Positions 7,616 to 44,703 of a stretch of 64,000 nt of DNA are shown here, one piece after another (position 1 is the first letter of the stretch; every line of letters starts with the position of its first letter). The position numbers and the translations under genes were made by a program. The notes under the pieces were generated by a model that was not told the DNA's origin, made no database searches, and saw nothing but the letters and a program-made list of their open reading frames with translations. Source of the stretch: an uncultured Gammaproteobacteria bacterium (GTDB taxonomy: Bacteria > Pseudomonadota > Gammaproteobacteria > UBA9214); the NCBI GenBank assembly GCA_963773065.1, contig CAVYZN010000011.1, positions 64,001-128,000 of the forward strand, given 5' to 3'.

Positions 7616-7732
7616 TGCAGGAGCTGTCAGGACGGGACCGATGGTTCAATCACCGGCTGACTCTACTGAAAAGCCGCTGCCCCGTCCAGTTAATGCCGGG
7701 GTAGGCCCCGTTCGGGGAATAATATTGCTAGC

Positions 7733-7869
7733 CTAGTGTCCATCCATAAACACCATTTTCACCGCAAAGACGCAAAGATCGCGAAGAAACTTATTAACAA
7801 AAACAATTAAACGGCTTTGCGTTCTTTGCGTCTTTGCGGTGAGTTTATGTTCTTTCTGGATGCACACAG
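7733..7869. mobile_element. MITE-like palindromic element, copy 1
   Basis: Terminal IR CTAGTGTCCATCCA/TGGATGCACACAG; internal IR TCACCGCAAAGACGCAAAG; inverted copy at 62834-63018. Confidence 0.65.
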
Positions 7870-7897
7870 CCTATGCTCAATCGCCGAGGAGTTCACG

Positions 7898-8749: not shown

Positions 8750-8792
8750 CTGAGGGCGTTACACCCAGACTCACACTAGCCCCGGTGGGCGC

Positions 8793-11599: not shown

Positions 11600-12087
11600 A
11601 CTCCGTCACTTTTTTTGTGCCGGATGCACGCGCCATGGATGAACTGGGTCAGCGTCTGGCGCGCTCCGCCAGGCGCCGGGGTGTGATTTACCTGCAGGGA
11701 GAACTCGGGACCGGCAAGACCACGCTGGTGCGCGGCCTGCTGCGTGGTTTGGGCTATCAAGGCAAGGTCAAAAGCCCGACGTACACCCTGGTTGAACCTT
11801 ATCCGCTTGACCGTCTAAGCGTTTATCACCTGGATCTTTACCGGCTGGGTTCACCCGCGGAAATCGAGGGGATCGGCATCCGCGATCTGCAGACCGACGA
11901 CGGCCTGTTGCTGGTTGAATGGCCTGAGCAGGGTGAAGGTGCGTTGCCGCCGGCGGATCTGATAATTTTCATGGCTTATCGGGATAACGGCCGCGAGTTG
12001 CGGCTGCAGGCCGTGACGGCCCAGGGCGAACGGCTGGCCGCAGCCTGTTTAAATCACGATCCTGCCGTTGGGCTAGCTGACAAGTGA
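11596..12087 (+). CDS. tsaE: tRNA t6A biosynthesis ATPase
   Basis: GELGTGKTT, VKSPTYTLVEPY, HLDLYRL. Confidence 0.96.
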   Translation: MNSVTFFVPDARAMDELGQRLARSARRRGVIYLQGELGTGKTTLVRGLLRGLGYQGKVKSPTYTLVEPYPLDRLSVYHLDLYRLGSPAEIEGIGIRDLQTDDGLLLVEWPEQGEGALPPADLIIFMAYRDNGRELRLQAVTAQGERLAAACLNHDPAVGLADK

Positions 12088-12230
12088 CAAATAGTTATCA
12101 CGGATCGTTTTGATCCCTCTGCAGGTTCCTGTCCTATCTCACAGACTTATATCACGTTTATTGCAAATCCCCTTGATTTGTGCATAGTATACGTGCGCGG
12201 TTGAAAAAAGATTCGGGGGCTTTTGTCGGC

Positions 12231-13652
12231 GTGAAACACCTTGTCACAGGGCTGGGTCTCTGGTTCGCATGCCAGACGCTGCTGTTTGCCGCACCCGTTG
12301 AGGTCCAGGGTGTGCGCCTCTGGGCGGCTCCGGATCATACCCGTGTGGTCTTCGATACCAGCGGGCCGGTTGGATATGAACTGTCGTCCCTGCATAACCC
12401 CGAGCGCATTGTAATCGATGTGCCGGCCGCCATGGCCAGTGCAGCGGTGTCACGACAGCAAGGCGCCGGCGGCGTGGTCAAGGGAGTACGCGCCGCACAG
12501 TATTCGAAACAGGCGGTGCGTATCGTGCTGGATCTGCGGCAGCCAGTCCGACCACGCAGTTTTACCCTGACGCCCGCTGGTCAGTATGGGCACCGTCTGG
12601 TCATCGATCTTTACGAAACCGCATCCGCGCCACCGTCGAAGTTCGGTTCAAACTCCCTGGCAAGGACAGGACATACTGCCACGGCAGCGGCCGGTCCAAC
12701 CCCCAAGGCAAGGACAGGACAAACTGGCAAGCCAACGGCCGGCTCAATTGCACAGGCAAAGACAAAGAAATCGGTAACCGCAGACAAGCCGCGGATGCGC
12801 GACCTGGTAATCGCGATTGATGCGGGTCATGGCGGTGATGATACCGGTGCCATCGGCCGCAATGGCACGTATGAAAAGGATGTGGCGCTGGCCATCGCCC
12901 GGCGACTGGCGGCGCTGGTCGAGAAGGCGCCCGGCATGCGAGCGGTGATGACTCGCCAGGGTGACTACTATATCGGGCTGCGCCAGCGCATCAACAAGGC
13001 GCGCGAGCAGAAGGCCGATCTGTTTGTTTCCATCCATGCGGATAGTTTCCGTGATCAACGGGTCCAGGGTTCATCGGTTTTCGTGTTGTCTAACCGGGGC
13101 GCATCTTCCGAAATGGCGCGCTGGCTGGCGGAAAAGGAAAATGCCGCGGACTTGGCGGGTGGGGTGAGCCTGGATGACAAGGATGAGGTGCTTGCCGAGG
13201 TGCTGCTGGATCTCTCGCAGAATGCCACCATAGAAGCCAGCATCAATGTGGCCGGGAACATGCTCGACGAACTCCAGCGGCTTGGCAAGACCCACAAGTC
13301 CACCGTCCAGCAGGCCGGTTTTGTGGTATTGAAATCCCCGGATATCCCATCGGTACTGGTCGAGACCGCATATATCTCAAACCCGACTGAAGAGCGGAAA
13401 TTGCGCGACAGTCGCCACCAGGAGTCGCTGGCCACTGCCATGTTGCGCGGCATCAACAGATACTTCGCCAACCACCCTCCGCTGGGTACCCGTGTGGCGG
13501 CGCGTGAGCACGTCATCCGGCGGGGGGAGACACTGGATAGAATCGCGCAGCAATATGAGGTCAGCATGAACAGCTTGAGGGACTACAACGACCTGAAGTC
13601 CGACGTTCTGCGCATCGGGGGCACCCTGCGCATCCCGCCGTCTGGTGGTTGA
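12231..13652 (+). CDS. amiB: N-acetylmuramoyl-L-alanine amidase (AMIN + Amidase_3 + LysM)
   Basis: IDAGHGGDD, FVSIHAD, SVLVETAYISN, C-terminal LysM; tsaE-ami-mutL synteny. Confidence 0.88.
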   Translation: MKHLVTGLGLWFACQTLLFAAPVEVQGVRLWAAPDHTRVVFDTSGPVGYELSSLHNPERIVIDVPAAMASAAVSRQQGAGGVVKGVRAAQYSKQAVRIVLDLRQPVRPRSFTLTPAGQYGHRLVIDLYETASAPPSKFGSNSLARTGHTATAAAGPTPKARTGQTGKPTAGSIAQAKTKKSVTADKPRMRDLVIAIDAGHGGDDTGAIGRNGTYEKDVALAIARRLAALVEKAPGMRAVMTRQGDYYIGLRQRINKAREQKADLFVSIHADSFRDQRVQGSSVFVLSNRGASSEMARWLAEKENAADLAGGVSLDDKDEVLAEVLLDLSQNATIEASINVAGNMLDELQRLGKTHKSTVQQAGFVVLKSPDIPSVLVETAYISNPTEERKLRDSRHQESLATAMLRGINRYFANHPPLGTRVAAREHVIRRGETLDRIAQQYEVSMNSLRDYNDLKSDVLRIGGTLRIPPSGG

Positions 13653-13714
13653 ATATTCCACGGCGAGGTTCTGATGCGTAGGCTTCGTCAAACGGCGGGA
13701 GTATCATCGAACCC

Positions 13715-14218
13715 ATGCGGTCGAAGCATGAAAACCGGCGGGTTTTGAAACGCTGCTGTTTTGCGGTGTGTGTGACCCTGCTGGCCGGCTGCCAGACGGT
13801 GGCGACAAATAATCCCGCCACGATTTATTTCAAGATACCCTCCGGTTCGAAGCTGATACTCAACAAGGAACTGGCCATCCCGGCGGGGGAGGCCCATATC
13901 ATGCTGCAGCATGGCGAGGCGGCCTCCGGCGCCAGCGAGTACTATATCAATTGCCGGTTTGAAGTGCGGGACCTCGGTCCCCGTGTCATTCAACCCGATA
14001 CTTTTCTGATCACCCGCGATAGCAGCCAGCGCGAATGGGTCAATCAGCCCTCTATCATGCGTTTCTACAAGGTTTTCCACCTGAAATCGGAACGCCAGCC
14101 CGATATCATGCCCATGATCTGTCAGTACTGGGCCTACCCGCTCATCGGCAGACCGGTCACCATCCAGGAAATACAGGAAGCCCTGGGGAGTTACTTCACC
14201 TTTGAATTCGCCCGCTAG
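13715..14218 (+). CDS. Hypothetical lipoprotein
   Basis: Lipobox LAGC; sits between amidase and mutL. Confidence 0.7.
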
Positions 14219-22418: not shown

Positions 22419-23763
<1,345 letters not shown>

Positions 23764-23973: not shown

Positions 23974-24943
23974 CTATTTTCCCCGCAGCTTCCGCGCCAG
24001 CGCCGTCACCATCGGTTTCAGATCCTTATGTTTCAGCCGTTTCACCGCCTGTTTCGGGCTGACCCACTCGCGGCCGCGGTGGCTTTCCTCCCATTTCTTC
24101 TCCGGCACGAGGTGGGTGACCTCCATGGCGTAGACCTCGACGCTGCAGCTTGCGCCCCATTTTTTGCAGCGATAGGCGCCGAGTGCCTCGTCGAATACCC
24201 GTCCTTCCGCGCCGGCTTCCTCCCAGGCCTCCTTGGCGGCGGATTCCCGGGCCGTGAGTCCGGGGTCATGGATGCCTTTGGGGACGATCCAGTGTTTCCT
24301 GTTGCTGGAATAAATGACGAGAATTTCCGGTTTGCCCTTGCGCAGGCGAAAGGGGATCACGGCCGACTGGGTGTAATAATAGGCTGGGCGGTTGCGCCGC
24401 TCGGGACCCTGCGGCGCGGGAAACGGGAACTTTTTCGGCAATGTGGCGGGGTGTGTGATCGCCGCCAGCGCGGCGCATCCGGCGGTGAGGCGGCGCCAGT
24501 CGGCCGGCATGCCGAGTCTGGCGAGCGCCGCCGTCGGCAGGACCTTGCCGTCTTGCGCCACGGGAACCCGGTCCTGCAACAGGAAGGCGAGCAGTGTCTC
24601 CAACCCCGGGTTGTGCCCGACCAGCAACACCCGTTGCGCCTGTCGCGGGCAATCCGCCAGCACCGCGCGCAATTCATCGAGGCTCCGCCTCGTAGATCCG
24701 TTCGTCCAGGTGGATGGCGCGCGTGCCGATCGCCATTGCCTTGCATGCCTTCGCGGCCGTGGCGATGGCGCGTTCGGCCGGCGAACTGACCACGTGATCG
24801 GGCGCCAGGTCCTGCTGCATCAGCCAGCTTCCCATGCGCTCTGCGCTGCGTTTGCCATGGAGCATGAGCGGACGGTGAAAATCGTCGGTACTGACACTCC
24901 AGTCGGACTTGCCGTGGCGTAGCAGCAGCAGTTCACGTCCCAT
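23974..24943 (-). CDS. SixA-like histidine phosphatase fused to Nudix hydrolase (frameshift near 24680)
   Basis: LLLRHGKSDW, VSSPAERA, LVGHNPG; then WIVPKG..AAKEAWEEAG Nudix box. Confidence 0.85.
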
Positions 24944-25072
24944 GGCGGTTAACTCCATTAGTTAAAACCAGCAGTAGCGATGCCAAATGCGTGCTATGCC
25001 AAGGCAGGATGGCCGAGGGGTGACACGCCGTAAATCCGTCCCTCAAGGCTCGCGGGCGGCAAGTGCGCGGCA

Positions 25073-26270
25073 TCAGCCGAACACCGCCCGGGGCGTGCTC
25101 TTGAAGTCTTTCGCCAGGATTTCGATGGTAATGCGCATGATCTCCCGAAAGACCTTGTCCCTGTCATTGTTGATGACGATGGGTATATTGGCCCGGTCCG
25201 CCTCGGACAACAGATAGGTTTGCAGGCGCCAGATCTCGTCAAAATGCTTGAGGTAGCGTTCCGCCCGGCGTTGCGGCACATCGGTGCTGCGTCCGCTGAT
25301 GCGCCGCTGCAGCCGTTTGCGTTTCAGTATGCCGAGCATGACCGGGATGACCACGGCCTCCTTGTCGAATTTCAGCTTCTCGATGAACGCCGGGTGGATG
25401 TGCACCCCTTCGAGGATCAGGGAGACGCGTTCCCGCAAGGCGCGCTGTATCACCGCCTCGATGGCCACCGACAGCATATCCGCCTGGGTGCGGTAGCCGT
25501 GTATCAGCAGCGTTTCCGGTATTTTGGTGAAGGTCTTCGGTTGCCCGGGCAACGCGCTCCAGGCGGCGAATGAGGAGGTGTGCAGGACGGGGAGTAGCTG
25601 CTTGGGCATCATGGTGCGCATGACCTCGCGCAGCATGTCCGTTGACTGCGTGCGGACGATCTCGAGATAACTTGCCAGCGTGGTGGCGATGGTGCTCTTC
25701 CCGCAACCGGCCGTCCCGCCGATCAGGAAGATCAACGGCCGACCGCTGTTGACGAAGTCCCGCCATATCAGCCAGCGCTGCGCGACGGCGGGGCCGAGCT
25801 TGCGTGATTGCCTGAGATAGCGGTAGGTCAGGTTGCCGAGATGCCGGGAGGTGATCTGGCCGATATACCGCTCGTTCAGATGCTTGTAGATGGTCGGTGA
25901 CGATCTCGCTGGCCTCCTCGCTCTCCAGACCGATGGTTTCAAGACAATGCTGGTACTCCAGTCTCGAAAACGGCCGCAGCATGCCGTCCCTCTGCTTGAC
26001 CTGTATCTGGAATGACAGGAGCTCCCTGTGCCCCAGGTAGCGGTGGTAGACATTGGGCCGCTTCAATGCCTTCAGGTGTTCGATGACCCGGCGGCGCAGC
26101 TCGGTGGTGTTGATCAACGACTGATCGTCGATGTCCGAGCGGATCTCCGAGGAGACCTGGTAGGCCTCCTTGAAGGATAGCCCGGCATCTTGCAGGGAAC
26201 GTATCAGGATACCGCGCAGGAACGGCACCTTGGTGTTCTCTTCCTGATCTTCAACCAGGATTTTGGCCAT
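25073..26270 (-). CDS. ATP-cone plus 2-phosphoglycerate-kinase-like P-loop kinase (frameshift near 25890)
   Basis: VPFLRGILIRSLQDAG ATP-cone; IGGTAGCGKST, STDMLREVMR, ILEGVHIHP. Confidence 0.8.
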
Positions 26271-26408: not shown

Positions 26409-27991
26409 ATGTTCAGTACGGCGGAACTCGGGCAAAAGATTCCGAAAAGCGAATACAAGCTGCGCGAGCCGGTGCTGAGACAGGAACTCCTGGAAATACA
26501 GACGGCTCTTTACCAGAGCGGCGAATTTCCGGTGATTATCGTGTTCGCCGGCGTCGATGGCGCCGGCAAGGGGGAGACGGTAAACCGGCTCAATGAATGG
26601 ATGGATCCGCGCTGGATCGTAACCAGGGCCTATGACGATCCCTCCGACGAAGAACGCGAACGGCCCGAATACTGGCGTTACTGGCGGGATCTGCCTCCCA
26701 AGGGGCGTATCGGCCTGTTTCTGAGTGCCTGGTACTCGCGGCCGCTGCTGGACCGGGTCTACGAGAAGGATACCGAAGCGCTGTTCGACGAGCGGCTGGA
26801 CCGTATCCTGGCCTTCGAGAAGGCCCTTGCCGACGATGGCGCGCTGATCCTCAAATTCTGGATGCATCTCAGCCATGTGGCTCAGAAACGCCGTTTGAAA
26901 AAACTGGAGAAGGATCCCTTGACGAACTGGCGCGTTACCCAGCGCGACTGGGATCACTGGCATATCTATGACCGATTCGAGTCCGCGGCGGAGCGGGCCA
27001 TCATGCGCACCAGCACGGGTACGGCGCCCTGGACCATCGTCGAGGGCGCGGATCCCTGTTACCGCAGCCTGACGGTCGGGATGATCGTGCGCGATGAGAT
27101 CAGCAAGCGCCTCGATGAGTTCCGCAAGAAAAGAATGGTGAGGGAGGAACTGGCCATGCTCGCCACCCCGGCCGGTGGGCAGGGCATGCCGCCGTCCGCG
27201 CCGGGCGGATCGGCAGGGACGCCGGCCTCAGCCGGCGCGGGTGCGCCGCTGCACGTCGCCACGGTGTTGTCCCGGCTGGACATGTCGCTGGCTCGCTTGC
27301 CAAGAGTGACTGCAAGCGGCTGCTGCAGGAGCAGCAGGCGCGGCTCAACTTGCTGCATCGCCGTGCGCTGAAGAAAAACACATCGACCATCATCCTGTTT
27401 GAAGGGCCGGATGCCGCCGGCAAGGGCGGCGCCATCCGCCGGATCACCGCGGCGCTCGATGCCCGCCATTACCAGGTCATACCGATAGCCGCGCCGACGG
27501 ATGAGGAGAGCGCGCAGCATTATCTGTGGCGCTTCTGGCGCCATCTTTCCCGCGCCGGGCGCATCACCCTGTTTGACCGCAGTTGGTACGGGCGCGTGCT
27601 GGTCGAGCGGGTCGAGGGGTTCGCCACGGAGGAAGAATGGCGGCGGGCCTACGCGGAGATCAATGAGTTCGAGGAGCAGTTGACGCGGCATGGCATCGTC
27701 CTGCAGAAATACTGGGTCCATATCACCAAGGAGGAGCAGTTCAAGCGCTTCAAGGAGCGCGAGGCGACGCCGCACAAGCAATGGAAACTGACGGAGGAAG
27801 ACTGGCGCAACCGGGATAAATGGGATGCTTATGAAATGGCGGTCAACGATCTCGTCGAACACACCAGCACCACTGCGGCGCCCTGGATCATGGTGGAAGG
27901 CAATGACAAGGCCTATGCGCGCATCAAGGTGATCACCGCGCTGTGCGATCGTCTGGAAGAGGTGCTGAAGGAAAGCAAGGCCGTCAAATAG
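26409..27991 (+). CDS. pap: Polyphosphate:AMP phosphotransferase, two-domain PPK2 (frameshift near 27300)
   Basis: AGVDGAGKG and EGPDAAGKGG; FDRSWYGRVLVERVEG. Confidence 0.92.
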
Positions 27992-28011
27992 GCACGGCAA
28001 TAGGTCCAACT

Positions 28012-28058
28012 GTACGTTTCTTGTCGACGAAATAGGGGCGTTTAAAAGTCCTATTCAT
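28012..28058 (+). repeat. ~47-bp direct repeat, left copy (right copy 28997-29042) flanking the AbrB/VapC module
   Basis: GTAC.TTTCTTGTCGACGAAA.AGG..CGTTTAA.AGTCCTATTCAT at both sites. Confidence 0.85.
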
Positions 28059-28184: not shown

Positions 28185-28415
28185 GTGGAAACCACCATCA
28201 CCGTAAAAGGTCAGATCGTCATCCCTGCCGGCGTGCGCCGCAAGTTCGGTCTGAAAGAAGGCACCCGCATCCAGGTGGACGTCGACGAGCAGGAGCACCG
28301 CATCATCCTGACCCCGATCACCCGCGAATACGTGGAGCGGCTGCGCGGCCGTTACCGCGGCAAGGGGCTGTTGAAGGCGTTGGCCGCCGAGAAGAAGCAC
28401 GAAAGGGTGCTGTAA
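28185..28415 (+). CDS. AbrB/MazE/SpoVT antitoxin
   Basis: KGQIVIPAGVRRKFGLKEG. Confidence 0.9.
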   Translation: METTITVKGQIVIPAGVRRKFGLKEGTRIQVDVDEQEHRIILTPITREYVERLRGRYRGKGLLKALAAEKKHERVL

Positions 28416-28825
28416 TGGCGCGCAAGCCGAAGACGGTCGTACTCGACTCGTGGGCGGTGCTGGCGTTTCTGGAAGATGAACCTGCCGGGCAGCAGGTCGG
28501 TGAAATCATCGCGGACACCCACGAGCACAACATTCCGCTGCTGATGACCACCGTCAACGCCGGCGAGGTCTGGTACATCGTCGCCCGCGAGGTTTCCGAG
28601 CCCGAGGCGGACAAGTGCATCGAGAGTATGTTGAAGATCGGCATCGAGTTCGTCGCGGCGGATTGGAGCCTCGCGCGCAGCGCCGGAGGCTTTAAGGCGC
28701 GGCACAGGATGTCCTACGCCGACTGTTTCGCCGCAGCGCTGGCCAAGGAATGCAAGGCCGAGCTCGTGACCGGAGACAAGGAGTTCAAGCAGGTTGGGAA
28801 GGAGGTGGCGGTACATTGGGTGTGA
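28415..28825 (+). CDS. vapC: VapC PIN-domain toxin
   Basis: VLDSWAVLA, NAGEV, SYADCFAAALA, VTGDKEF. Confidence 0.9.
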   Translation: MARKPKTVVLDSWAVLAFLEDEPAGQQVGEIIADTHEHNIPLLMTTVNAGEVWYIVAREVSEPEADKCIESMLKIGIEFVAADWSLARSAGGFKARHRMSYADCFAAALAKECKAELVTGDKEFKQVGKEVAVHWV

Positions 28826-28996
28826 TTGCATGGGATTCTTCGGACATCTATGTTCCGCGATCATCCCCAACGCGCCGGTCACACGTCCGAGAGGCCAAAG
28901 GGTCTCGACATTGGGCGCCACGCGTTGATGAATGGCCCGGAAAGTCCCTGATGATGGACCGTGATCTCGCGTGCTTGACAGCCCAGCGGCCCAGCC

Positions 28997-29042
28997 GTAC
29001 TTTTCTTGTCGACGAAAAAGGCCGTTTAAGAGTCCTATTCAT
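28997..29042 (+). repeat. Right copy of the ~47-bp direct repeat
   Basis: Matches 28012-28058. Confidence 0.85.
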
Positions 29043-29316
29043 TTCATCACCGTCAGGCGGGCATCATCTCGCCAACAAAAAAACGCTCACCGGTTAGCTG
29101 ATTTCGATCTGTCCACCGCATATTTGCCGAAACCCGGCGACGTGCAGCCCGAGATGAGCGTGATTACAGGGATCTGAACCCAGGCAATGGGCGGTTGTTT
29201 TTCGCAAAAAAATGGGGCTTTATGCTGCATATACCCAACCCCAATCGCTCGTGACTCTGTCCTGAGTAGGGCTGTGCTGTGGGATCGGCTATACTGCTCC
29301 GGAGGAGGTGTCCAGC

Positions 29317-29538
29317 ATGAAAATTCAATTGACCGCCGTTTTCCAGAAAGTACCTGAGGGTTACATCGCCTTCATTGAGGAGTTGACGGGCGCCAATACT
29401 CAAGGCGCCACGTTGGAGGAGGCGCGCGCCAACCTGGAGGAAGCCGTTGCCCTGGTGCTGGAGGCCAATCGCGCCTTGGCTGAAGAAGATCTGCAGGGAT
29501 CCGAGGTGATTCGCGAGCCCCTGCGGCTCACTGCATGA
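29317..29538 (+). CDS. hicB: HicB family antitoxin
   Basis: GANTQGATLEEARANLEEAV. Confidence 0.88.
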   Translation: MKIQLTAVFQKVPEGYIAFIEELTGANTQGATLEEARANLEEAVALVLEANRALAEEDLQGSEVIREPLRLTA

Positions 29539-29738
29539 AGCGTCTGGAACTCATCCGCCATCTGGATGCACATGGCTGTCGGTTGCTTCGGGAGGGCGGT
29601 AACCATAGGTGTATCTCAATCCTGAAGCCCGCAAGGTTACTACCGTGCCGCGGCATCGAGAGATCAATGAGCATCTTGCCCGCAGGCTATGCAAGGATCT
29701 CGAAATCCCTGTGGTCGGGGCCTCGCGTTGACGCATAG
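29535..29738 (+). CDS. hicA: HicA family toxin (frameshifted)
   Basis: MKRLELIRHL..GC.LLREGGNH then, shifted, TTVPRHREINEHLARRLCKDLEIP. Confidence 0.8.
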   Translation: MKRLELIRHLDAHGCRLLREGGNHRCISILKPARLLPCRGIERSMSILPAGYARISKSLWSGPRVDA

Positions 29739-29784
29739 GTGTGCATGAAACACATCGGGTTCAGGTCTAACATTCGGATCATAA

Positions 29785-29895
29785 AACGCCTCACACTGTT
29801 ATTGACACGCAAGGGCTATCTCGTTGCAGAGCAGGGGATGACCTATCTGGCTGATACCGATCCGGATGCCGTGCTCGGATCCCTGCAAGCGGTGC
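29785..29895 (+). mobile_element. Short IS91-family transposase remnant
   Basis: LLTRKGYLVAEQGMTYLADTDPDAVLGSLQA resembles an IS91-like transposase segment (from memory). Confidence 0.45.
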
Positions 29896-29918
29896 GAATC
29901 ACCGATTCGAGGCAGGAT

Positions 29919-30163
29919 TCAATGCCGGAAGCTTTTCAGCAGCGCTTCCCGATCAACGCTTTTGTGCCGCGAGACAGCGCGAAGAATGCTGTTCAAGGTG
30001 CCGATACGGAGTGCGATGTGGTCCGGTACGGCGAGGCGCTGATGCCCGGGTTCTTCGGTTGAAGAATAATGTGGCTGCCCTGCTGATGTACGATACGATA
30101 TCCCCAATCGCGGCATAGCCCCTAATCGACCTGCCGCCCGCTCAAGTCCCTCGGCAGCTTCAT
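29919..30163 (-). pseudogene. Second HicA-like toxin, frameshifted
   Basis: MKLPRDLSG..GYRIVHQQGSHIIL..VPDHIALRIGTLNSIL across frames. Confidence 0.75.
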
Positions 30164-30375
30164 GCGCAGGCGAGGACTTCGTCGCGCACCAGATGCAGTC
30201 GAATGGAAGAAGGGAGATTATCGGGTTGATCGAAATAATAAGCGTGCACGGCTTGGCGCACGTTATCGCGCAACTGCGCCCAGGTATCCGCCTGGGTGAA
30301 TATCGGCTCCGTGAGGCATTCCGTGCAGAAACCGCCGTCGGCTTCCTGGGTAACCTCGAAGATCAACTCGCTCAT
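30160..30375 (-). CDS. HicB-like antitoxin
   Basis: MSELIFEVTQEADGGF..IFTQADTWAQLRDNVRQAV..IRLHLVRDEVL. Confidence 0.75.
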   Translation of the reverse strand: MSELIFEVTQEADGGFCTECLTEPIFTQADTWAQLRDNVRQAVHAYYFDQPDNLPSSIRLHLVRDEVLACA

Positions 30376-30438
30376 GGCTGGAATTCTAATCTTCAATTGA
30401 TGACGGTACAAGAAAACTACAATTCGGGGACATTGGTG

Positions 30439-30656: not shown

Positions 30657-30846
30657 TAGAACGGAAAATAAATCTGTCATTTTATTCTCGGTACGTAGAA
30701 ATACGTAGCCGTGAGCCAGGTATGGCCACACCGGCGTCATAGGGTTGGTACATCTCACCATCAAAGCGCCTCGAACTCGCCGTCTCGCGGCTCCAACTGT
30801 CGCGGAACTTCGTTGCGAAGTGGCGTTGGATTTCCTACCCTTAAGC

Positions 30847-32595
30847 ATGACCTCGACGCATTCGAAACGCGTATTTATTTCCTACCGCCGCGACGATGCG
30901 GCGCCCCACGCGCGGAACATCGAGCAGGCGCTCGACGAACGGTTCAGCGACGATCGGGTGTTCTTGGACCAGCGTGACATCGAGGCCGGCGTGGAGTTTC
31001 CACGCAGGATCGCCGAGGCGCTCGACGCAAGCGATGTCGTAGTCGTCGTCATCGGTAGCAAATGGGAAAACATCAAGGACGGTGCAGGCCAACGACGGCT
31101 CGACAATCCGCAGGACTTTGTCCGCATCGAGATCGCCACTGCGCTGCAATCCGGAAAACGCGTCATCCCCGTACTCGTCGACGATGCGCAAATGCCGCGG
31201 GCTGAGGCACTTCCAACGCCCCTGGCAAGGCTCGCGGATCTGAACGCGTTAACGATCAGCAACCAGCGAATCCTGGAGGATGTGGCGCATCTGGTTGATG
31301 CGGTCGAGGGACGATCGGCACAAGAGCGCGCCTGGAAACTGCTGTTGAGGGCGCTGGTTGTCGGGCTGCTGATCGCGCCGCTGCTGTTTTTTCTGCTCGG
31401 TAAGATTCGTTTTTTCGAGGGATTCTTCGGCCTGGATATTCACCTCGAAAGCCTGTTGGCGGCGTATTCGACGCGGCATGATACGCCGGCGTTGCGGGAA
31501 CGTATTGCGCTGGTCGTGATCGATGCCGATTCGCAACGCCGACTCGGCATCGGGCCGGACGATCCGGCCGCGTGGCGAGAATAGCATGCAGATCTGATTC
31601 GTACGCTCACCGCTGCCGGCGTGCGGATGATCGTGTTCGATTTCCGCTTCGATGGCGCGAGCGACGACGACGAACTCGTGCTCAAGGCGCTGCATGAGGC
31701 GAAACGTCACGGGGTGCCGGTCATTGCCGGCGTTACTTCGTTCGATCCGCAGGGGAATCCTGTCAGCGATGCGGGATTCAAGGATGCAATCACCGCCTGG
31801 GGACACGCCTGCCTCGGGATGAAAAATAATGCGCTACCGACGGTAAACCTCGCGTTGCGACGCAAGCATGGCGGCATCGTACGCTCCCTGTCGCTGGCCG
31901 CCGCGCAGCACTCGGCCACCGCCGAATCCCCGTTTCGCATAGAGTCGGGCCACTCCCTTCAGATCATGGACGGTACCGGCAGCGGCAACTACGTCGCATT
32001 CCCTGTTGCATCGAAACTCGATTCCGCGCAGACAGACGGGTGCGAGGCGCAGAGTGCGGGCGATACTGCTTTCCCGTTGCGCTTCGACCCCTCCCCGCGC
32101 AAGCAACTGCGCAGCCCTGACGTGCGCTTCGCATACGCCACTCTGGTGGAGCACGCGAGCGAAACGGACCTGAGCGCATTCAAGAACAAGATCGTGATTG
32201 TCGGGCAAAGCAACGACGCCAACGAGCGGTTTGACATCCAGCAGGGCGCGACGCGCGAAGCAAGGCAGGGTTTCGAATTGCAGGCCGACGCGATTCGCAC
32301 GCTGCTCGACGTCAAGTCCGTTCGCGACGTGCTCAGGCCGCTCGATACCCCGTGGCAGGTAGTCCTGATTACCGCGGTTTGTGTGCTGGGAATATTGCTG
32401 GCGCTCGTCTCCGGATCGCTGCAATCCGTGTGGCGTGTACTGTTGTTATGTGCCTGCGTCGTCGCGTACGGAGCGCTGGCAAGCCTGGTTTACCGCGAGG
32501 CTCGTATCGTTCTGCCATTGTCCTACCCGATCGCGGCCTCGTTACTCACCTTTTTCGCGACGCGCAACGCCTTTACCAAAGGAGTGCGCACATGA
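30847..32595 (+). CDS. TIR domain - TM - CHASE2 - 3TM membrane protein, interrupted by an in-frame TAG at 31582-31584
   Basis: VFISYRRDD, DFVRIEIATAL, VIPVLVD (TIR_2); IALVVID, WRE*HADLIRTLTAAGVRMIVFD, FKNKIVIVG, GFELQADAI (CHASE2); ORFs 30745 and 31621 share a frame. Confidence 0.8.
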
Positions 32596-33476
32596 AGAAC
32601 GCACCGAAACTCGCCCGACACTCACCGAACCCAGGGAAGGTAGAAAGAGATTCCTGGTTCCCGCTCCGTTTCCGATTGAGCAAGGAAGCGAACGTGTCGC
32701 TGCTCACCTGTGTCATGTGCATGGCCACTGTGCTGGCCGCCGGCTGCAGCACCACACTCGACGGCGTGTTCCCCGATGGGCGGCGCCTCGCGGAGGCGCC
32801 AGTCGAGTGGGCCGGGGTGACCATCCAGCGGGGCGAAAAGCGAATCGCGTCGGAAAAATACCTGCCATTGGAGAAGGGCGACTTGATTCAGACCGACTCA
32901 CGCACCTACGCGCTGATCCGATTCGCTTCCGGCACGGAGGCTTATCTCGCACCGAATTCCCGTGCCCGCATCGGATCGCTGGACGAGTTCTTCGGAGAGG
33001 TGCTGGCCAAGGTGCGCGGTGCGTTCGAGGTCAAGACGCAGTACATCACGGCCGCGGCGAAGGGCACCGTCTTCCTGGTGCGCTCGACCGGCGAGGGTGT
33101 TGCCGAGGTGATCGCGCTGGAAGGGGTGATCAGTCTCTCGTCCACCGCGGGGCGATGGCCATCCATTGATCTGCGGGCGGGCGAAAAGGCCACCGTCGTC
33201 CGGGACCAGGCACCCACGCAGATCAGCGCCTCCAAAGCGGAACTCGAAGAAATCGAACATCGGTACGAGCCGATCGAGAAAGCGGCCCCGATTTCGAAAG
33301 GCACGGCTGTGGGTACCGGCATCGCAATCGGCGCCGTGGTGGGCACTGTCATTTATACTGTGACGAAGGACTCTCATCACGGAGGAAACGGAGGATCAGG
33401 CTCGGGACGGGGCACTGCTGTCCCGTTAAATTCCTCTCCCACTGGGACCACTGACGCTCCTATTGCGGTTCCATAG
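32592..33476 (+). CDS. FecR-domain lipoprotein
   Basis: Lipobox LAAGC; LEKGDLIQT, FEVKTQYITAAAKGTVFLV, ALEGVISL. Confidence 0.8.
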   Translation: MKNAPKLARHSPNPGKVERDSWFPLRFRLSKEANVSLLTCVMCMATVLAAGCSTTLDGVFPDGRRLAEAPVEWAGVTIQRGEKRIASEKYLPLEKGDLIQTDSRTYALIRFASGTEAYLAPNSRARIGSLDEFFGEVLAKVRGAFEVKTQYITAAAKGTVFLVRSTGEGVAEVIALEGVISLSSTAGRWPSIDLRAGEKATVVRDQAPTQISASKAELEEIEHRYEPIEKAAPISKGTAVGTGIAIGAVVGTVIYTVTKDSHHGGNGGSGSGRGTAVPLNSSPTGTTDAPIAVP

Positions 33477-33579: not shown

Positions 33580-35826
33580 GTGATGATTGAGACCCTGCAA
33601 CGCATTACGCAACAGATCAACGACGCGTCCGACCTGGACGAAGTCTTCGCCGTCGTCGTGCGTAGTGTCAAGGCATATCTCGGGTCGGATGCATGTTCCG
33701 TGTATCTCGTCGATGCATCGGGCGAGAACTGCATTCTCGCAGCCACCGACGGTTTGGACCCTCACGCTATCGGCTCCGTCCGCCATGTTCTCCGGGAAGG
33801 GCCGGTGGGATTGGTGGTTCGTCGTCAGCAGCCCGCGGGCTTGCCGGATACCCAACGGCAGCCTGCTTTCCGCCATTTCCCGGAATACGGTGAACAGGTC
33901 TATCAGGCATTTCTCGGCGTGCCCATTATTCACTATCGGAAGGTACTGGGCGTGCTGGCCGTGCAGCAAATAAACGAGCGCGCGTTCGCAGGCCAGGATG
34001 AGGCCTTTCTGATGGCCATCGCGGCGGAACTTGCAGGTTTGGTTCACGCCGCAGTAACTGGCGAGACCGACGTTTTTGCGCGCGGCGGACAGCAGACTCT
34101 AGGTCTCCTTAGAGGCGTCAAGGCAGCACCCGGCGTGGGGTTCGGTCGGGGTGTGCTGCCCTCGCCAGCGGCCGATATCGATTCCGTGTCCGACAGCATC
34201 GTCGAAGACGTCCAGGCTGAGGAAAATGCTTTCAGGCGAGCAGTGGATGCAGTTCGGGCGGAATTGCGCGCCAGCGGGGAACGCATGGCGGCCGAGATAC
34301 CGACCGAGGCGCACGCCATGTTTCGGGTCTATGCCGCGCTGTTGGACGATGACCAGTTGTTCTCGGATACGCTGGCGCGGATCCGCACCGGCATCTGCGC
34401 CCCCGCAGCGCTAGGGAAGAGCATCGCGCAACACGCGAGAACCTTCGAGGAAATGGAGGATCCCTACCTTCGGGCACGCGCGGAGGACATCCGCGGCCTG
34501 GGACGCCGCGTCTTGTTGCGTCTCCGGTCTGGTGAGGGGGAACGTACGCAATACCCGGAGCACTGCGTGCTGGTAGGCGAGGAAATCAGTGTCGCCCGTA
34601 TCGCGGATGTGCCGATCGGGCAACTTGCCGGGATCGTATGCACGCTTGGTTCGCCCTTTTCTCATGCGGCGATCCTGGCACGCACGCTACGCATACCCGC
34701 CGTGGTAGGCGTCGGCAACGTTCCGCTCGGACAGTTGGGAGGCCGCGAGCTCCTCGTGGACGGGCATCAAGGGCGCGTCTTTGTGGAGCCTTCGCCGGCC
34801 GTGCTCGAAGAATTCCAGCGGCTGATCAGACAGGAAGAGCAACGCGCCGCGGAACTGGAAGCACTGCGTGACTTGCCGGCCGAAACACAGGACGGCGTGC
34901 GCGTGGTGCTCCAAGCCAATGCGGGCCTGCTCTCCGATCTCGGCCCTGCCTTGAGCAGCGGCGCTGAGGGAATCGGTCTTTATCGCACCGAGTTCACGTT
35001 CATGGTGTGCGACTCGTTCCCCGGGGAAGACGACCAGTACGAGGTCTATCGCCAGGTGGTGGAATCGTTTGCGCCCAGGCCGGTCACCATACGCACTTTG
35101 GATGTGGGAGGCGACAAAGACCTCCCTTACTTCCCAATCCGCGAAGACAACCCGTTCCTCGGTTGGCGCGGAATCCGGCTGACGCTCGACAACCCGGGAG
35201 TCTTTTTGATCCAACTGCGGGCCATGTTGCGAGCCAACGCGGGTTACGGCAACCTGCGGATCCTTCTGCCCATGATCAGCTCAGCCGCTGAGGTGGATGA
35301 AGTCCACGCCTTGCTCGATCGCGCCGAACGCGAGTTGCAACACGAGGGGCTGGCGGCGGCCAGGCCGAGCGTGGGCGCGATGATCGAGGTGCCATCGAGT
35401 CTCTATCAAATGGACGCACTGGCACAGCGCGTGGACTCCTTCTCGATCGGGACCAACGATCTCACGCAGTACCTGCTCGCTGTCGACCGCAACAATGCCC
35501 GCGTCTCTGCCCATTACGACAGTCTGCATCCGGCCGTAATCCGGGCGCTTGAGCATGCTATTCGTCAAGCACACCATGCCGGCAAGCCGATTGGCGTCTG
35601 TGGCGACATGGCCGGCGATCCCGCCTCGGCGATTCTGCTATTGGGTCTGGGAGTCGATTCCCTGAGCATGGCGTCGCCCAGTATCCCGCGCGTCAAGCGG
35701 GCACTTCGCGGCTTCACCCGGCAACGGGCCCAGGAGTTGGTGACGAAGGCAATCGCGTTGGAAGACCCGCAACAAATCCATCTATTGCTCGATACCGCCA
35801 TCGAGGAGGCCGGTCTGGGGACTTAG
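33580..35826 (+). CDS. ptsP: GAF-containing PEP-protein phosphotransferase EI(Ntr)
   Basis: N-terminal GAF; SHAAILAR, GLYRTEF, NPFLGWRGIR, SIGTNDLTQY. Confidence 0.93.
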   Translation: MMIETLQRITQQINDASDLDEVFAVVVRSVKAYLGSDACSVYLVDASGENCILAATDGLDPHAIGSVRHVLREGPVGLVVRRQQPAGLPDTQRQPAFRHFPEYGEQVYQAFLGVPIIHYRKVLGVLAVQQINERAFAGQDEAFLMAIAAELAGLVHAAVTGETDVFARGGQQTLGLLRGVKAAPGVGFGRGVLPSPAADIDSVSDSIVEDVQAEENAFRRAVDAVRAELRASGERMAAEIPTEAHAMFRVYAALLDDDQLFSDTLARIRTGICAPAALGKSIAQHARTFEEMEDPYLRARAEDIRGLGRRVLLRLRSGEGERTQYPEHCVLVGEEISVARIADVPIGQLAGIVCTLGSPFSHAAILARTLRIPAVVGVGNVPLGQLGGRELLVDGHQGRVFVEPSPAVLEEFQRLIRQEEQRAAELEALRDLPAETQDGVRVVLQANAGLLSDLGPALSSGAEGIGLYRTEFTFMVCDSFPGEDDQYEVYRQVVESFAPRPVTIRTLDVGGDKDLPYFPIREDNPFLGWRGIRLTLDNPGVFLIQLRAMLRANAGYGNLRILLPMISSAAEVDEVHALLDRAERELQHEGLAAARPSVGAMIEVPSSLYQMDALAQRVDSFSIGTNDLTQYLLAVDRNNARVSAHYDSLHPAVIRALEHAIRQAHHAGKPIGVCGDMAGDPASAILLLGLGVDSLSMASPSIPRVKRALRGFTRQRAQELVTKAIALEDPQQIHLLLDTAIEEAGLGT

Positions 35827-36145: not shown

Positions 36146-36305
36146 GTAGGGCGCAATAAGGTGCAGCCGCATTGCGCCGCATGTTGCGTGTTGCATCCGG
36201 TGCAATGCGCTTCGCTTATTGCACCCTAAGCGCTTTCATTAAGAGATGCGTTGTGTTGCTTCGCAACGCCTGGTGGGTTACGCAAAAAACGCTAACCCAC
36301 CCTAC
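36146..36305. repeat. GTAG-type REP/REPIN elements
   Basis: GTAGGGCGCAATAAG...CTTATTGCACCCTA and GGTGGGTTA..TAACCCACCCTAC. Confidence 0.75.
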
Positions 36306-36386
36306 ATTTCTATTTACGAATCACGATGCTGTGTAGCAACCTACGCGGCTGGCATTCCTGGCGGCGTTATGGGGGAGAAACCGGAG

Positions 36387-37187
36387 CTAACCGTAGCGTC
36401 CCTCGATGTAGTCGGCGGTCTCCCGGTTGCGGGGCGTGACGAACATGGTTTCGGTGGCGACGTGCTCCACGACCTTGCCCATCAGCATGAAAATGCATTC
36501 CTCGCTGGCGCGGCGGGCCTGGGCCATGTTATGGGTCACGATGAGGATGGTGTATGTACCGCGCAGGTCCCAGATCAGTTCCTCGACGGCCTCGGTGCCT
36601 TTGGGATCGAGCGCGGAACAGGGCTCGTCCATCAGCAGCACGCCGGGTTTGACCGGCAGCAGGCGCGCGATGCAGAGTTTCTGCTGCGCCTCGAGGGAGA
36701 GATCGGTGGCCTTGATGTGCAGCCGGTCCTTGACTTCGTCCCACAACAGCACCTGCCTGAGCGCATCCTCGACGATTCCATCCTGCTCCGTGCGCGAGGC
36801 GCGTTTGCCCTGCGCATGCAGCCGGTAGCCGAACAGGACGTTCTCGCGTATGGAGACCGGCAGGGGATTGGGCCGCTGGAAGACCATGCCCACCTGCTTG
36901 CGCACCTGCACGAGCTCCACGGCGGGGCCGTAAACATTGTGGTCATGAACCCTGATCGTGCCCTCGATGCGCACGTAACCGAGTCGCTCGTTGATGCGGT
37001 TGATGCTGCGCAGCAACGTGGATTTGCCGCAGCCCGAGGGGCCGATGAGGGAGGTGATGAGGCCATTGCGGATATTCAGGTCCACGTCGAACAGGGCCTG
37101 GAACGTGCCATACCAGAGATTCAGCTTCTCCGTTTGGATGGCGTAGCGCACGTATTTGTCGTAGGCCGCCTGGCGGGTTGAATTCAT
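36387..37187 (-). CDS. pstB: Phosphate ABC transporter ATPase
   Basis: GPSGCGKST, VFQRPNP, MDEPCSALDP, YIEGRYG. Confidence 0.95.
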   Translation of the reverse strand: MNSTRQAAYDKYVRYAIQTEKLNLWYGTFQALFDVDLNIRNGLITSLIGPSGCGKSTLLRSINRINERLGYVRIEGTIRVHDHNVYGPAVELVQVRKQVGMVFQRPNPLPVSIRENVLFGYRLHAQGKRASRTEQDGIVEDALRQVLLWDEVKDRLHIKATDLSLEAQQKLCIARLLPVKPGVLLMDEPCSALDPKGTEAVEELIWDLRGTYTILIVTHNMAQARRASEECIFMLMGKVVEHVATETMFVTPRNRETADYIEGRYG

Positions 37188-42362: not shown

Positions 42363-43129
42363 TCAGGACGGCGAACCGGCAGCGGCGGTGTGGAGTTGCC
42401 GTTTCACGTCGGCCCACAGGTTCTCGTAGCATTGCGCGGCCGGGCTCCTTCCCGCGAAACTCCCGAGCGGCGCGCGCATGATCCCCATGCGTTCCACCTC
42501 ACTGGTATAGGGAATGGCGGTCCCGAGGAGATTGGTCAGATAGTCGGGGGGATTGTCCACGATCGCGCGGTGCAGTTGTTTGCGCCGGTCGGCCATGGCG
42601 AAGAAAGGCAGCACCTTGAGGGATCGAGATCCTGCGCGGCGAGAAATTTCTTGATCTGTCTGAAGGTGCGCAGTGACAGCGGCGTCGGGATGGTCGGCAC
42701 CAGCACGGCATCCGCCGCGTAAAACACATTCTCGGACACCAGTGAAATGCTGGGCGGACAATCGAGGAAGACATAATCGTATTCGCCGGCCAGCGGTTCC
42801 AGCAGTTTGCGCAGCCGGTGGGTAGGTTTCTTCGCCTGTTCCAGGAAGAGGTCCATGTTGCGATAGGAAAAATCCGCCGGCAGGAGGTCGAGGTCCTCAT
42901 AATCGGTCCCCCGGATGCAGTCCTCCAGTTCGCTCTTGCCCGCGACCAGGCGCTTGCCGCCCCCCTTGATTCTGGGCTTGATGCGAAAGTAGAAACTCGC
43001 CGCCCCCTGGGGATCGAGGTCCCAGACCAGCGTCGGCGCGCCCTCGCGCGCGGCGAGGTAGGCCAGGTTGACGGCCGTGGCGGTTTTGCCGACACCGCCC
43101 TTGATGTTGTAGGTGGCCAGTACCTTCAT
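42363..43129 (-). CDS. ParA/Soj-like ATPase (frameshift near 42620)
   Basis: KGGVGKT, WDLDPQG, LDCPP. Confidence 0.88.
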
Positions 43130-44703
43130 GCCGCGGCATCCGCTTCGGCCGGGGTACATCCGGTAAACAGTCGCCGGTAATGCGCATGATTCCCGGGCGA
43201 GTCGAATTTCCCAAACCGGTCCGCGAATTCCGCGCGCGCCGCCTGCTGGCGGCGCTCCAACTCCTCGATCAGCATGCCCATGGCCAGCAGGGTATCCGGC
43301 GGGGCTTTGCCCTCGGCCGCCATCTGTTGACCGAAGTGTTTGAGGGTCGCGATCTGCACGGCGTAGTCCTGAAAATTGCCCAGGTTCTCCTGCAGCGCCT
43401 TGAGCGCGCCGATCGGCGACCTGATGCGCCGCGCCGGAAAAAGACTCTGGAAGAACTCCATCAGATAACGCAGTTTCTTGCAGGTCTTGCGCAGCTCATG
43501 GAGCGCCACCGCCGGCGTATCCGGCCCGATGGCCCGTCCCTCACTCAGGGTGCGCCGATAGAGGCGCCAGATGCGCTCGCAGGCAAGCGCCGACACGGGC
43601 CGGGTCGCGTTGGGCAGCCTTGAACGGTTCGGTACGGCCCGCAGGAGAAACTGCCGCCAGGTGTTGATCAGCCGGCGGTAGCGCACGCTGTCCAGCGCCT
43701 TCACCAAGGCATGGTGCTCGATGGCGCGTTGTCTGCCGATGAAATCCCGCAGGGGTTCGATATCCGCCTGGGCGGAAGCGGGCAGGCCGGCGCGATAAGT
43801 GTCGAAAGTCAGCAGGTAGACATCCAGGTCCCGCAGCGGGGTGGTTATCTGGCCGAGCCAGGCGAATTCGGTTTTATAACGGTTCACCGTGCGCAGCGGC
43901 AACACCCCCCGGATCTGGGTCAGGGCGGAGCGGGTGCGGCGTACGGCCACGCGGAAATCATGCAGGAACTCGGTATCCGTGCCGCCGCGGGTGCCGGCCT
44001 CGTTGGCTTCCATGATGTCAAGCAGCCGCAGCAGGATGACCCTGGCCGCCTGGTCGGCGCGCATGCCGCGCTCAAGGTGCAGGTCCAGTCTGGGCGTATA
44101 GCCGCCCGGTGTATGTCCGACCCTCGCCAGCGCCGTCAGCAGGGGATCGGCGTTTGCCGGCGCCAGTCCCAGATCTTCCAGCGCCTTCACGAGCTGCTTA
44201 CAGGGTTTTTGATAGCCCTTTACCGGCGCCACGACGGCGCGCCGGTCGAGCGCGTAAGACTTTCTTCCTTCCGGGCGGCGCGCCGAGTTTTCCTCGAAAA
44301 TCACGCGCGCCACGGTCTTCTCGTGCCGGTCCAGAACGCGCAGGGTGTGGACCCTGGAAATGATCATGACCAGCGGCGCCAGCTCGCGCATCTCCACGAG
44401 CGCTTCAAGATGCTCACGTAACCGGCCCGGCGGCAGGTCCCGGGCATAGCGTGGCGCCTTGTTCAGGATGGCCTGACCGCGCCGCTCGCCGCCATCCAGG
44501 TCGCGCCATACCAGCCGGTACCGTCCGCCGTCAGGAATACCCTCCAGCACGGCGTCGCTGGCATGAACCCGCCAGTCGAAGGTATCGAAGCAGGTTCGCT
44601 GCACTACGGCAGGCGGCTCCGGGACGAGTTGCAAGTCTGTCTGCAACGCGGACTGCACTGCCTCGGCATCCAGTTGGCTGGGAATAATGAACTCGAAACG
44701 CAT
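43126..44703 (-). CDS. CHAD-domain protein with N-terminal CYTH-like region
   Basis: FDTFDWR; LHDFRVAVRRTRS, LRDLDV, LHELRKTCKKLRY, LQENLGNFQD. Confidence 0.9.
   Translation of the reverse strand: MRFEFIIPSQLDAEAVQSALQTDLQLVPEPPAVVQRTCFDTFDWRVHASDAVLEGIPDGGRYRLVWRDLDGGERRGQAILNKAPRYARDLPPGRLREHLEALVEMRELAPLVMIISRVHTLRVLDRHEKTVARVIFEENSARRPEGRKSYALDRRAVVAPVKGYQKPCKQLVKALEDLGLAPANADPLLTALARVGHTPGGYTPRLDLHLERGMRADQAARVILLRLLDIMEANEAGTRGGTDTEFLHDFRVAVRRTRSALTQIRGVLPLRTVNRYKTEFAWLGQITTPLRDLDVYLLTFDTYRAGLPASAQADIEPLRDFIGRQRAIEHHALVKALDSVRYRRLINTWRQFLLRAVPNRSRLPNATRPVSALACERIWRLYRRTLSEGRAIGPDTPAVALHELRKTCKKLRYLMEFFQSLFPARRIRSPIGALKALQENLGNFQDYAVQIATLKHFGQQMAAEGKAPPDTLLAMGMLIEELERRQQAARAEFADRFGKFDSPGNHAHYRRLFTGCTPAEADAAA

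Follow-up and report, generated by a model that had tools for sequence, protein, structure and literature searches.

A 64,000-nucleotide stretch of the genome of an uncultured gammaproteobacterium of the UBA9214 lineage (GenBank assembly GCA_963773065.1, contig CAVYZN010000011.1, positions 64,001 to 128,000 of the forward strand; hereafter the window) carries two overlapping genes with a conserved association. One encodes a membrane receptor that joins a cytoplasmic TIR domain, closest among solved structures to that of human SARM1, to a periplasmic CHASE2 sensor domain; the other encodes a small lipoprotein with a FecR domain. The reading somewhat favoured here is that the pair forms a receptor and lipoprotein co-receptor whose clustering activates NAD+ cleavage.

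A SARM1-like TIR domain on a CHASE2 sensor, with a FecR partner

Pfam places a TIR_2 domain (PF13676) at residues 9-133 of the receptor (E 2.2e-15, 57.6 bits against a cut-off of 28) and a CHASE2 domain (PF05226) at residues 210-517 (E 2.2e-17, 63.9 bits against 26.3), the frame having been translated with X at codon 246, the site of an in-frame TAG considered below. Hydropathy finds helices at residues 165-183, 505-523, 531-549 and 554-572, after which 10 residues remain. This is the layout of a CHASE2 receptor, a profile match with one helix before it and three after, and it agrees with the order given in an initial annotation made from the letters alone: N-terminal TIR, hydrophobic helix, CHASE2, three end helices and no C-terminal output domain. 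Across 89 aligned proteins the tail after the last helix has a median of 12 and a maximum of 39 residues, and so leaves no output domain there. The same alignment gives the mean number of lysines and arginines as 4.7 before helix 1 and 0.9 after it, 2.8 in the loop between helices 2 and 3, 0.6 between helices 3 and 4, and 3.6 in the tail, and a hydrophobic N-terminal stretch occurs in one protein of the 89. The positive-inside pattern and the lack of a signal peptide put both termini inside, the TIR domain being cytoplasmic and CHASE2 periplasmic; a periplasmic TIR, which would have undone the annotation, is not predicted. A pair of cysteines in CHASE2 (C322 and C399 in the window) is kept in 85 of the 89. 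An AlphaFold2 model of the homologue P0004 has a mean predicted local distance difference test score of 90.9 and a predicted template modelling score of 0.80, and fold searches with this whole 558-residue model return TIR and helical-bundle matches only, with no CHASE2 structure.

Sequence and fold agree on the affinity of the TIR domain. Among solved structures, all 19 sequence matches are to SARM1 or its worm orthologue, that to human SARM1 being the best (E 3.7e-7), and Foldseek ranks SARM1 first when searched with the P0004 model. In VIA-align the P0004 and SARM1 TIR domains superpose over 118 residues (Z 15.3, root-mean-square deviation 1.6), against a Z of 10.5 for the first TIR outside the SARM group. 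Residues F10, Y13, R14, D41 and E95 of the receptor align to F565, Y568, R569, D594 and E642 of SARM1, and are kept in 86, 86, 86, 86 and 88, respectively, of 88 other full-length clusters, among which E95, D90, W73, R244, D265 and G475 are invariant. The motif DFVRIEIATAL, where a catalytic glutamate had been proposed, is present and its glutamate is E95. With a profile score above the gathering score and a glutamate at the E642 position, the domain is a putative enzymatic TIR_2. NAD+ hydrolysis by SARM1 needs E642, and SARM1 activity depends on oligomerisation (PMC7282519). The SARM1 TIR itself branches inside a bacterial lineage (PMC13142454). In a tree of TIR domains the 88 receptor TIRs fall into six pure clades, with support that is weak in places and that does not resolve a single origin.

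The stop of the receptor gene overlaps the start of the lipoprotein gene as ATGA, and the second product is the FecR-domain lipoprotein that the initial annotation described: Pfam finds FecR at residues 98-180 (E 7.3e-6, 26.8 bits against a cut-off of 24), downstream of a predicted lipobox at Cys52; the Gly/Pro-rich tail is modelled with low confidence. A lipobox pattern is present in 42 of 43 partner frames, redundant loci included, and Asp never follows the Cys. Lipidation of the partner is predicted. The predicted signal of the window protein is unusually long. An alternative GTG start at 32694 would give a signal of normal length; the lipoprotein of the sister contig differs at the residue of this GTG, and the ATG start has the better ribosome-binding site. 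The model of a close homologue, P0271, resembles in fold the periplasmic parts of two anti-sigma factors, BDI_1681 (Z 15.4) and PupR (Z 14.6).

The pairing is fixed. A FecR-domain gene is adjacent, in the same orientation, at all 11 loci from named genomes (L064 found by profile and the other 10 by tblastn), in 23 of 26 metagenome loci (two of these being only short pieces at a contig edge, and the remaining three loci being cut by contig ends), and in all 9 genomes of a family survey, some of whose loci repeat earlier ones. The conserved partner foreseen in the initial annotation is thus found wherever contigs permitted checking. It lies upstream in an Accumulibacter-like group and downstream elsewhere, while adjacency is constant. 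In two unrelated natural fusions, P0161 and P0254 (the latter with TPR and PASTA domains), TIR, CHASE2 and FecR occur in one chain. Both have an extra hydrophobic stretch ahead of the FecR domain, which would therefore be tethered to the inner membrane, and either fusion could be a sequencing artefact. Partners also vary: locus L011 has two FecR lipoprotein genes in tandem (7572-9690), and Cys-rich repeat tails are present on those of L002, L003, L011 and L019.

How widespread is the receptor? An initial search found 13 other proteins with both TIR and CHASE2 among the best 120 matches, the closest homologue among the matches listed being P0004, which is 61% identical and unbroken. A profile search of representatives at 50% identity listed 150 proteins, of which 147 were examined together with the window protein, the window's two fragments and one TIR-only match being left out. 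At least 88 other clusters passed the full-length filter uninterrupted, a floor because it was the best 150 proteins that were listed, and they establish that full-length TIR-CHASE2 homologues exist. Named hosts include Aromatoleum, Thauera, Accumulibacter, Sedimenticola, Chromatiales and Gallionellaceae, with the intact pair present in named strains of the first two, among them Aromatoleum diolicum (L001) and Thauera (L002 and L003). The architecture occurs in none of 60 close relatives, in 2 of 400 genomes of a class sample (counting the window genome), in 9 of 301 of an Accumulibacter family sample, and in 2 of 14 from another family, one of them with a CHAT head. Survey matches outside the window genome have no internal stops. 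There is no full-length match in 72,556 plasmids (four TIR-only partial matches) or in 50,697 phages, and viral contigs give one weak CHASE2 match.

The head of this receptor is exchangeable. A CHAT protease replaces TIR in twelve proteins of 774-832 residues, with the His motif in 11 and the Cys motif in all 12, and P0218 and P0226 carry a TIR of a different type. In a tree of 129 CHASE2 domains the CHAT forms fall within a clade holding 38 TIR forms (support 0.988), and in one case a CHAT and a TIR form group as a pair (support 0.995); deep support is low, and the sample, chosen by a TIR-CHASE2 profile, is biased to TIR forms. These sequences indicate that the head has evidently been exchanged on one CHASE2 sensor. 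Caspases, like TIRs, are activated by proximity.

Proposed mechanism and rival readings

The proposed mechanism starts from a four-helix inner-membrane protein that would carry a TIR enzyme of SARM1 type on its cytoplasmic side and, facing the periplasm, a CHASE2 domain with a disulfide bond, with the FecR-domain lipoprotein as its dedicated periplasmic partner. An envelope cue would alter the contact between lipoprotein and CHASE2 so that receptors cluster, and the TIR domains brought together would cleave NAD+ to ADP-ribose or a cyclic form. The partner may activate the receptor or restrain it. The output could be a fall in NAD+ that would slow the cell or bring it to a halt, or else a signal that a protein from another locus would read; these are the simplest options because no effector gene adjoins the pair. 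A clustering-activated NADase was already suggested in the initial annotation, and the SARM1 match and the swaps with caspase heads lend this part support.

Several points weigh against the co-receptor NADase. Related TIRs can make different products, and phylogenetic closeness does not fix the product (PMC13142454). The catalytic glutamate is also kept in 106 of 106 TIRs of the same clade that are fused to unrelated domains, so that it is a trait of the clade and not proof of selection in the receptor. The 38 loci behind the pairing collapse to 23 groups at 90% identity and 10 at 50%, so that independent support comes from about ten lineages. Pair distances over 16 loci correlate no better between CHASE2 and FecR (Spearman 0.54) than between TIR and FecR (0.53), and therefore show co-inheritance, not contact. 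At one CHAT-CHASE2 locus there is no FecR gene in 9 kb, with only 755 bp in reach upstream. FecR pairing is uninformative on a toxic output, since CHASE2 kinases and cyclases also have FecR-type partners. NADase activity and partner binding are predicted for the pair.

Could the module be a stand-alone anti-phage or anti-predator system, which would sense an envelope breach and kill the cell by NAD+ depletion? This would be a special case of the co-receptor NADase, and is rather unlikely. The patchy spread across the family, class and close-relative samples speaks for it, as do genes at least 70% identical at five or more sites in the Accumulibacter-like cluster, the interchange of TIR and caspase heads (with a STAND-headed form listed in a supplement), and the place of the window pair at a variable site beside toxin-antitoxin genes. 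A TIR-STAND gene near one locus (L047) and a TPR-S gene near another (L005) point the same way, as exceptions among neighbours that are mainly housekeeping genes. Scanning 145 of 166 open reading frames from 23 loci (taken from a simple gene caller, the other 21 being 17 FecR partners and 4 duplicates or fragments), PADLOC matches 16 at E <= 1e-5, a raw count without a background rate; most are housekeeping look-alikes (RecQ, UvrD, an ABC exporter, phospholipase D, ComEC), and by our reading no complete defence system is among the 145. Context therefore does not support an anti-phage role, and the argument from the surroundings of the window pair does not carry over to homologues, which in the loci examined mostly sit outside defence islands and toxin-antitoxin clusters. 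The lack of full-length matches in plasmids and phages, and a Thoeris ThcB4 profile score far below its cut-off, likewise tell against this alternative.

Ordinary regulation is an alternative of similarly low probability. Here the TIR would make a little of an ADP-ribose-type second messenger, taking the role of a cyclase or kinase, and no cell would die. Genes for FecR-domain partners accompany CHASE2 kinases and cyclases, and receptors of this kind govern cyclic AMP (cAMP) signalling in Sinorhizobium; the neighbours of the pair are metabolic and regulatory genes, and in the Accumulibacter-like loci L005, L047 and L090 the pair retains a common housekeeping context. Against such a role, the sister heads are proteases and not messenger enzymes, and no receptor, effector, sigma factor, transcription factor or outer-membrane barrel gene is conserved beside the pair in the loci scanned, where L011 has only a divergent DUF6596-type sigma factor and two Thauera loci have a barrel-like gene upstream. 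Defence killing and a regulatory messenger are versions of the output, both compatible with the co-receptor NADase. Very improbable is a third alternative, in which the TIR would be a docking scaffold that recruits other TIR proteins, as in animal Toll-like receptors, the glutamate being incidental. TIR matches number 12, 9, 9, 8 and 3 in five carrier genomes and 5 in the window genome, with any at all in 4 of 14 controls, which suits a scaffold; its active-site residues are nearly invariant, however, the fold is nearest to enzymatic SARM1 and not to the TIRs of MyD88 or the IL-1 receptor, and a tblastn search of the window genome finds no second TIR of the same clade.

A bolder version of the co-receptor NADase, which must count as unlikely, is a bacterial cell-surface death receptor, in which CHASE2 and the lipoprotein would sense an envelope breach or protein debris from lysed neighbours and fire the SARM1-like NADase. 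If it were true, related lineages would be swapping a caspase-like protease onto one and the same sensor, much as TIR and caspase outputs both serve animal receptors. Free ribosomal protein uL2, present in bacterial extracts, is the one protein signal found reported for a CHASE2 pathway (PMC7529298), and a cue from lysis would be in keeping with it.

To our knowledge, phage components or nucleotide signals inside the cell are what activates bacterial TIR enzymes. In the receptor proposed here, the enzyme, of the type nearest human SARM1 among solved structures, would instead respond to a periplasmic input relayed through the membrane. The ligands of CHASE2 are described as unknown (PMC5192318). 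With its NAD+ readout, a module of two genes would offer a simple test of FecR-type control over CHASE2 and a screen for cues. The window copy is unsuited to such study.

The window copy and its surroundings

Table 1. Coordinates of the receptor-lipoprotein pair and of the segment that holds it (positions in the window).
Feature	Position	Strand	Basis or remark
Second copy of pstB 3' end, left boundary of 5.7-kb segment	30440..30656	-	93.6% identical to 36388-36605 over 218 bp
Receptor gene, TIR, transmembrane helix, CHASE2, three transmembrane helices; 582 codons	30847..32595	+	one frame with a single in-frame TAG
SARM1-like TIR domain, residues 9-133, cytoplasmic	30871..31245	+	Pfam TIR_2, sequence and fold match
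E95, putative catalytic glutamate	31129..31131	+	aligns to SARM1 E642
Transmembrane helix 1, residues 165-183, inside to outside	31339..31395	+	hydropathy, lysine and arginine pattern
Periplasmic CHASE2, residues 210-517, cysteine pair C322/C399	31474..32397	+	Pfam
In-frame TAG at codon 246, within CHASE2	31582..31584	+	nonsense mutation or assembly error
Transmembrane helices 2-4, residues 505-572, then 10-residue tail	32359..32562	+	hydropathy
FecR-domain lipoprotein gene, 294 residues	32592..33476	+	start overlaps receptor stop (ATGA at 32592-32595)
Lipobox Cys52 of lipoprotein	32745-32747	+	predicted lipobox
FecR domain of lipoprotein	about 32883-33131	+	Pfam
ptsP-like gene, GAF plus PEP-utiliser	33580..35826	+	inside segment, outside conserved pair
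3' end of intact pstB-like gene, right boundary of segment	36388..36605	-	repeat comparison

That the receptor occupies one reading frame, as first annotated, stands for its domains, which all lie in the same frame, and not for the frame itself, which TAG interrupts at codon 246: as assembled, the gene yields a 245-residue piece with TIR and the first helix and a 322-residue downstream piece. The initial annotation alluded to the break only through its mention of a "repaired allele". Three proteins listed for a 7545-bp contig match parts of the receptor and lipoprotein of the window at 97%, 93.5% and 96% identity. One of the three runs out of frame across the site and reads GENIMQT against GENSMQI in the window's shifted frame, which requires a sense codon (Tyr or His) at position 246 in that contig. 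Recoding of TAG, for instance as pyrrolysine, is rejected: no tRNA with a CUA anticodon (CTA in DNA) is found in the 91%-complete genome, and homologues have a sense residue, variable in identity, at the site of codon 246. Scanning metagenome contigs for the exact pattern spanning the stop gives zero matches. Four public runs cover the site; the share of words present is at most 0.28 in any run and 0.05 in the sole RNA run.

A recent nonsense mutation has a little better than an even chance of explaining the TAG; an assembly error, the organism's own gene being intact, comes just short of an even chance. The assembly is error-prone nearby: 5 of 15 flanking orthologues of at least 250 residues are frameshifted relative to the congener G002, and contigs from independent runs supply single bases missing from the window at 29607, 30059 and 30541. 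The sense codon in the 7545-bp contig and the absence of any other break in the receptor gene also favour an error. The flanking breaks, however, are all indels (5 of 5), with in-frame stops in none of the 15 genes; the comparison contig is from a different strain and itself carries frameshifts; and the receptor gene sits in a variable segment with decayed pieces, a FecR 3' fragment lying on another contig. The five frameshifted genes, of housekeeping type and including a ppk2-like gene, lie at 22449-23760, 23977-24952, 25076-26270, 26409-27988 and 42390-43159, and three of them were also compared with congener G004. Their frameshifts are probably assembly indels, which calls for caution over broken genes in this genome.

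The initial annotation put the pair in a 5.7-kb acquired segment among toxin-antitoxin modules. The segment is real and bounded by the pstB repeat, but the toxin-antitoxin genes (28185-30411) lie outside it. It contains the receptor gene, the lipoprotein gene and a ptsP-like gene only, and it is not found in 4 of 4 genomes of the same genus nor in one of the same family. In congeners G002 and G003 the ppk2-pstB interval holds just one gene, for a membrane protein that by eye resembles a chloride channel, so that the site is variable and the segment has been inserted there. A contig from run X2 links 30657 to other upstream DNA. The AbrB/PIN pair of the toxin-antitoxin cluster is also present at this variable site in congener G004, where no full-length TIR-CHASE2 match turned up. 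The ptsP-like gene has its best full-length matches (44-53% identical) in four congeners and one family member, relatives carrying several ptsP-like copies each, and is not seen adjoining homologous pairs in the loci scanned.

Smaller features crowd this region. The toxin-antitoxin-type genes comprise AbrB/MazE and PIN genes, both above the Pfam cut-off, a HicB-like gene below it, a weak HicA-like gene and more small open reading frames; the bases inserted at 29607 and 30059 in other runs fall within this cluster. Copies of about 55 bp, 85% identical, flank the AbrB/PIN pair (28003-28058 and 28988-29042), with related copies on contig C13. A short motif with GACAGATTTATTTT lies at the junction to the left of the receptor gene (30657-30690). 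On C13 near 7364 it adjoins a 156-bp copy of the 3' end of the lipoprotein gene, and C32 has five copies within 10 kb (80756-90725); the motif could represent one end of a mobile or cassette element. A 75-bp repeat at 36236-36314 has many copies in this genome and its congeners. Elsewhere in the genome there are four further TIR_2 matches, in two pairs (C23 109763-112666 and C17 86929-88138), and one canonical long CHASE2 protein (C21 22559-22780).

The homologous loci add observations of their own. At L047 a gene that lies 3 kb downstream (10955-13720) joins a TIR of the same clade to a STAND-type ATPase. The pair adjoins yraN in L095, L098 and L102, with a HIRAN-domain gene included in L098, where it lies between yraN and gmhA; we take yraN-gmhA to be a conserved operon order, in which the pair looks like an insertion. 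Two RoxA-like cytochrome c genes lie upstream at L001 (2898-5940), and the end of a second CHASE2 gene lies upstream at L102 (3-536).

Comparison with known systems

The human SARM1 TIR (PDB 9hq0, 6o0u and others) is the best match in both sequence and fold to the receptor TIR, which keeps the equivalents of Y568, R569, R570, D594 and E642 at about 20% identity in the structural alignment. In SARM1 control lies with ARM and SAM domains, a role that in the window receptor would fall to the periplasmic sensor and its membrane helices. Toll-like receptors are single-pass proteins with a leucine-rich-repeat ectodomain and a C-terminal scaffold TIR, whereas the window receptor has four helices, a CHASE2 ectodomain and an N-terminal TIR of the enzymatic SARM1 type; the "Toll-like" of the initial annotation survives as an analogy only. 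Thoeris and other TIR anti-phage systems share a TIR with a catalytic glutamate and give weak partial profile matches, all below cut-off (NCBIfam ThcB4 46.2 against 220, Pfam ThsB_TIR 15.6 against 21.2), and no ThsA-type effector gene is present among the 145 scanned neighbours or in the window segment.

On the partner's side, the FecR/PupR anti-sigma factors, which belong to cell-surface signalling, share the periplasmic FecR-type domain. The window partner lacks their cytoplasmic anti-sigma domain, having a signal peptide and lipobox ahead of the FecR domain, and no FecI-type sigma factor or TonB-dependent receptor gene is conserved beside it in the neighbours scanned. CHASE2 kinases and cyclases share an inner-membrane CHASE2 sensor with a dedicated extracytoplasmic partner. 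That partner has a FecR domain in the Burkholderia BiofilmReg operon (PMC5192318) and in CHASE2 cyclase clusters of Campylobacterota (PMC9239204); in Sinorhizobium NsrA goes with CyaK, CyaD1 and CyaD2 (PMC7529298, PMC13001267). Their output domain is C-terminal, whereas that of the window receptor is an N-terminal TIR, which sets it apart from canonical CHASE2 proteins, and unlike their partners the window lipoprotein is minimal, with neither a LysM domain nor a barrel of its own.

The closest relatives in plan are caspase-headed CHASE2 receptors, known computationally only. A metacaspase with one transmembrane helix, CHASE2 and three further helices, of the same topology, was reported from Trichodesmium in 2012 (PMC3501461), and EACC2-caspase-CHASE2 proteins in 2021 (PMC8195603). 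They share the layout of an N-terminal cytoplasmic effector, one helix, an extracytoplasmic CHASE2 and three C-terminal helices, likewise without a C-terminal output. They differ in the head (caspase or CHAT, against a SARM1-like TIR), in the company they keep (extracytoplasmic function sigma factors with DUF1822 or TRADD-N, against a small FecR lipoprotein as fixed partner) and in their hosts, those named for the TIR-headed pair being Proteobacteria. Supplements of the 2021 report list neighbour genes of Alkalinema and Stenomitos as TIR, one transmembrane helix, two CHASE2 and three more helices (PMC8195603). These have the same domain order and appear there only as neighbours of other genes; the Alkalinema protein is adjacent to a secreted RNase T2, with no FecR partner named. 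No description of a TIR-headed CHASE2 receptor with a FecR lipoprotein was found in the open literature searched or in 12 of the 13 supplement files of PMC8195603. The pair is a real, conserved two-gene module, and varies a theme already known from CHASE2-FecR receptors and from CHASE2 receptors with effector heads.

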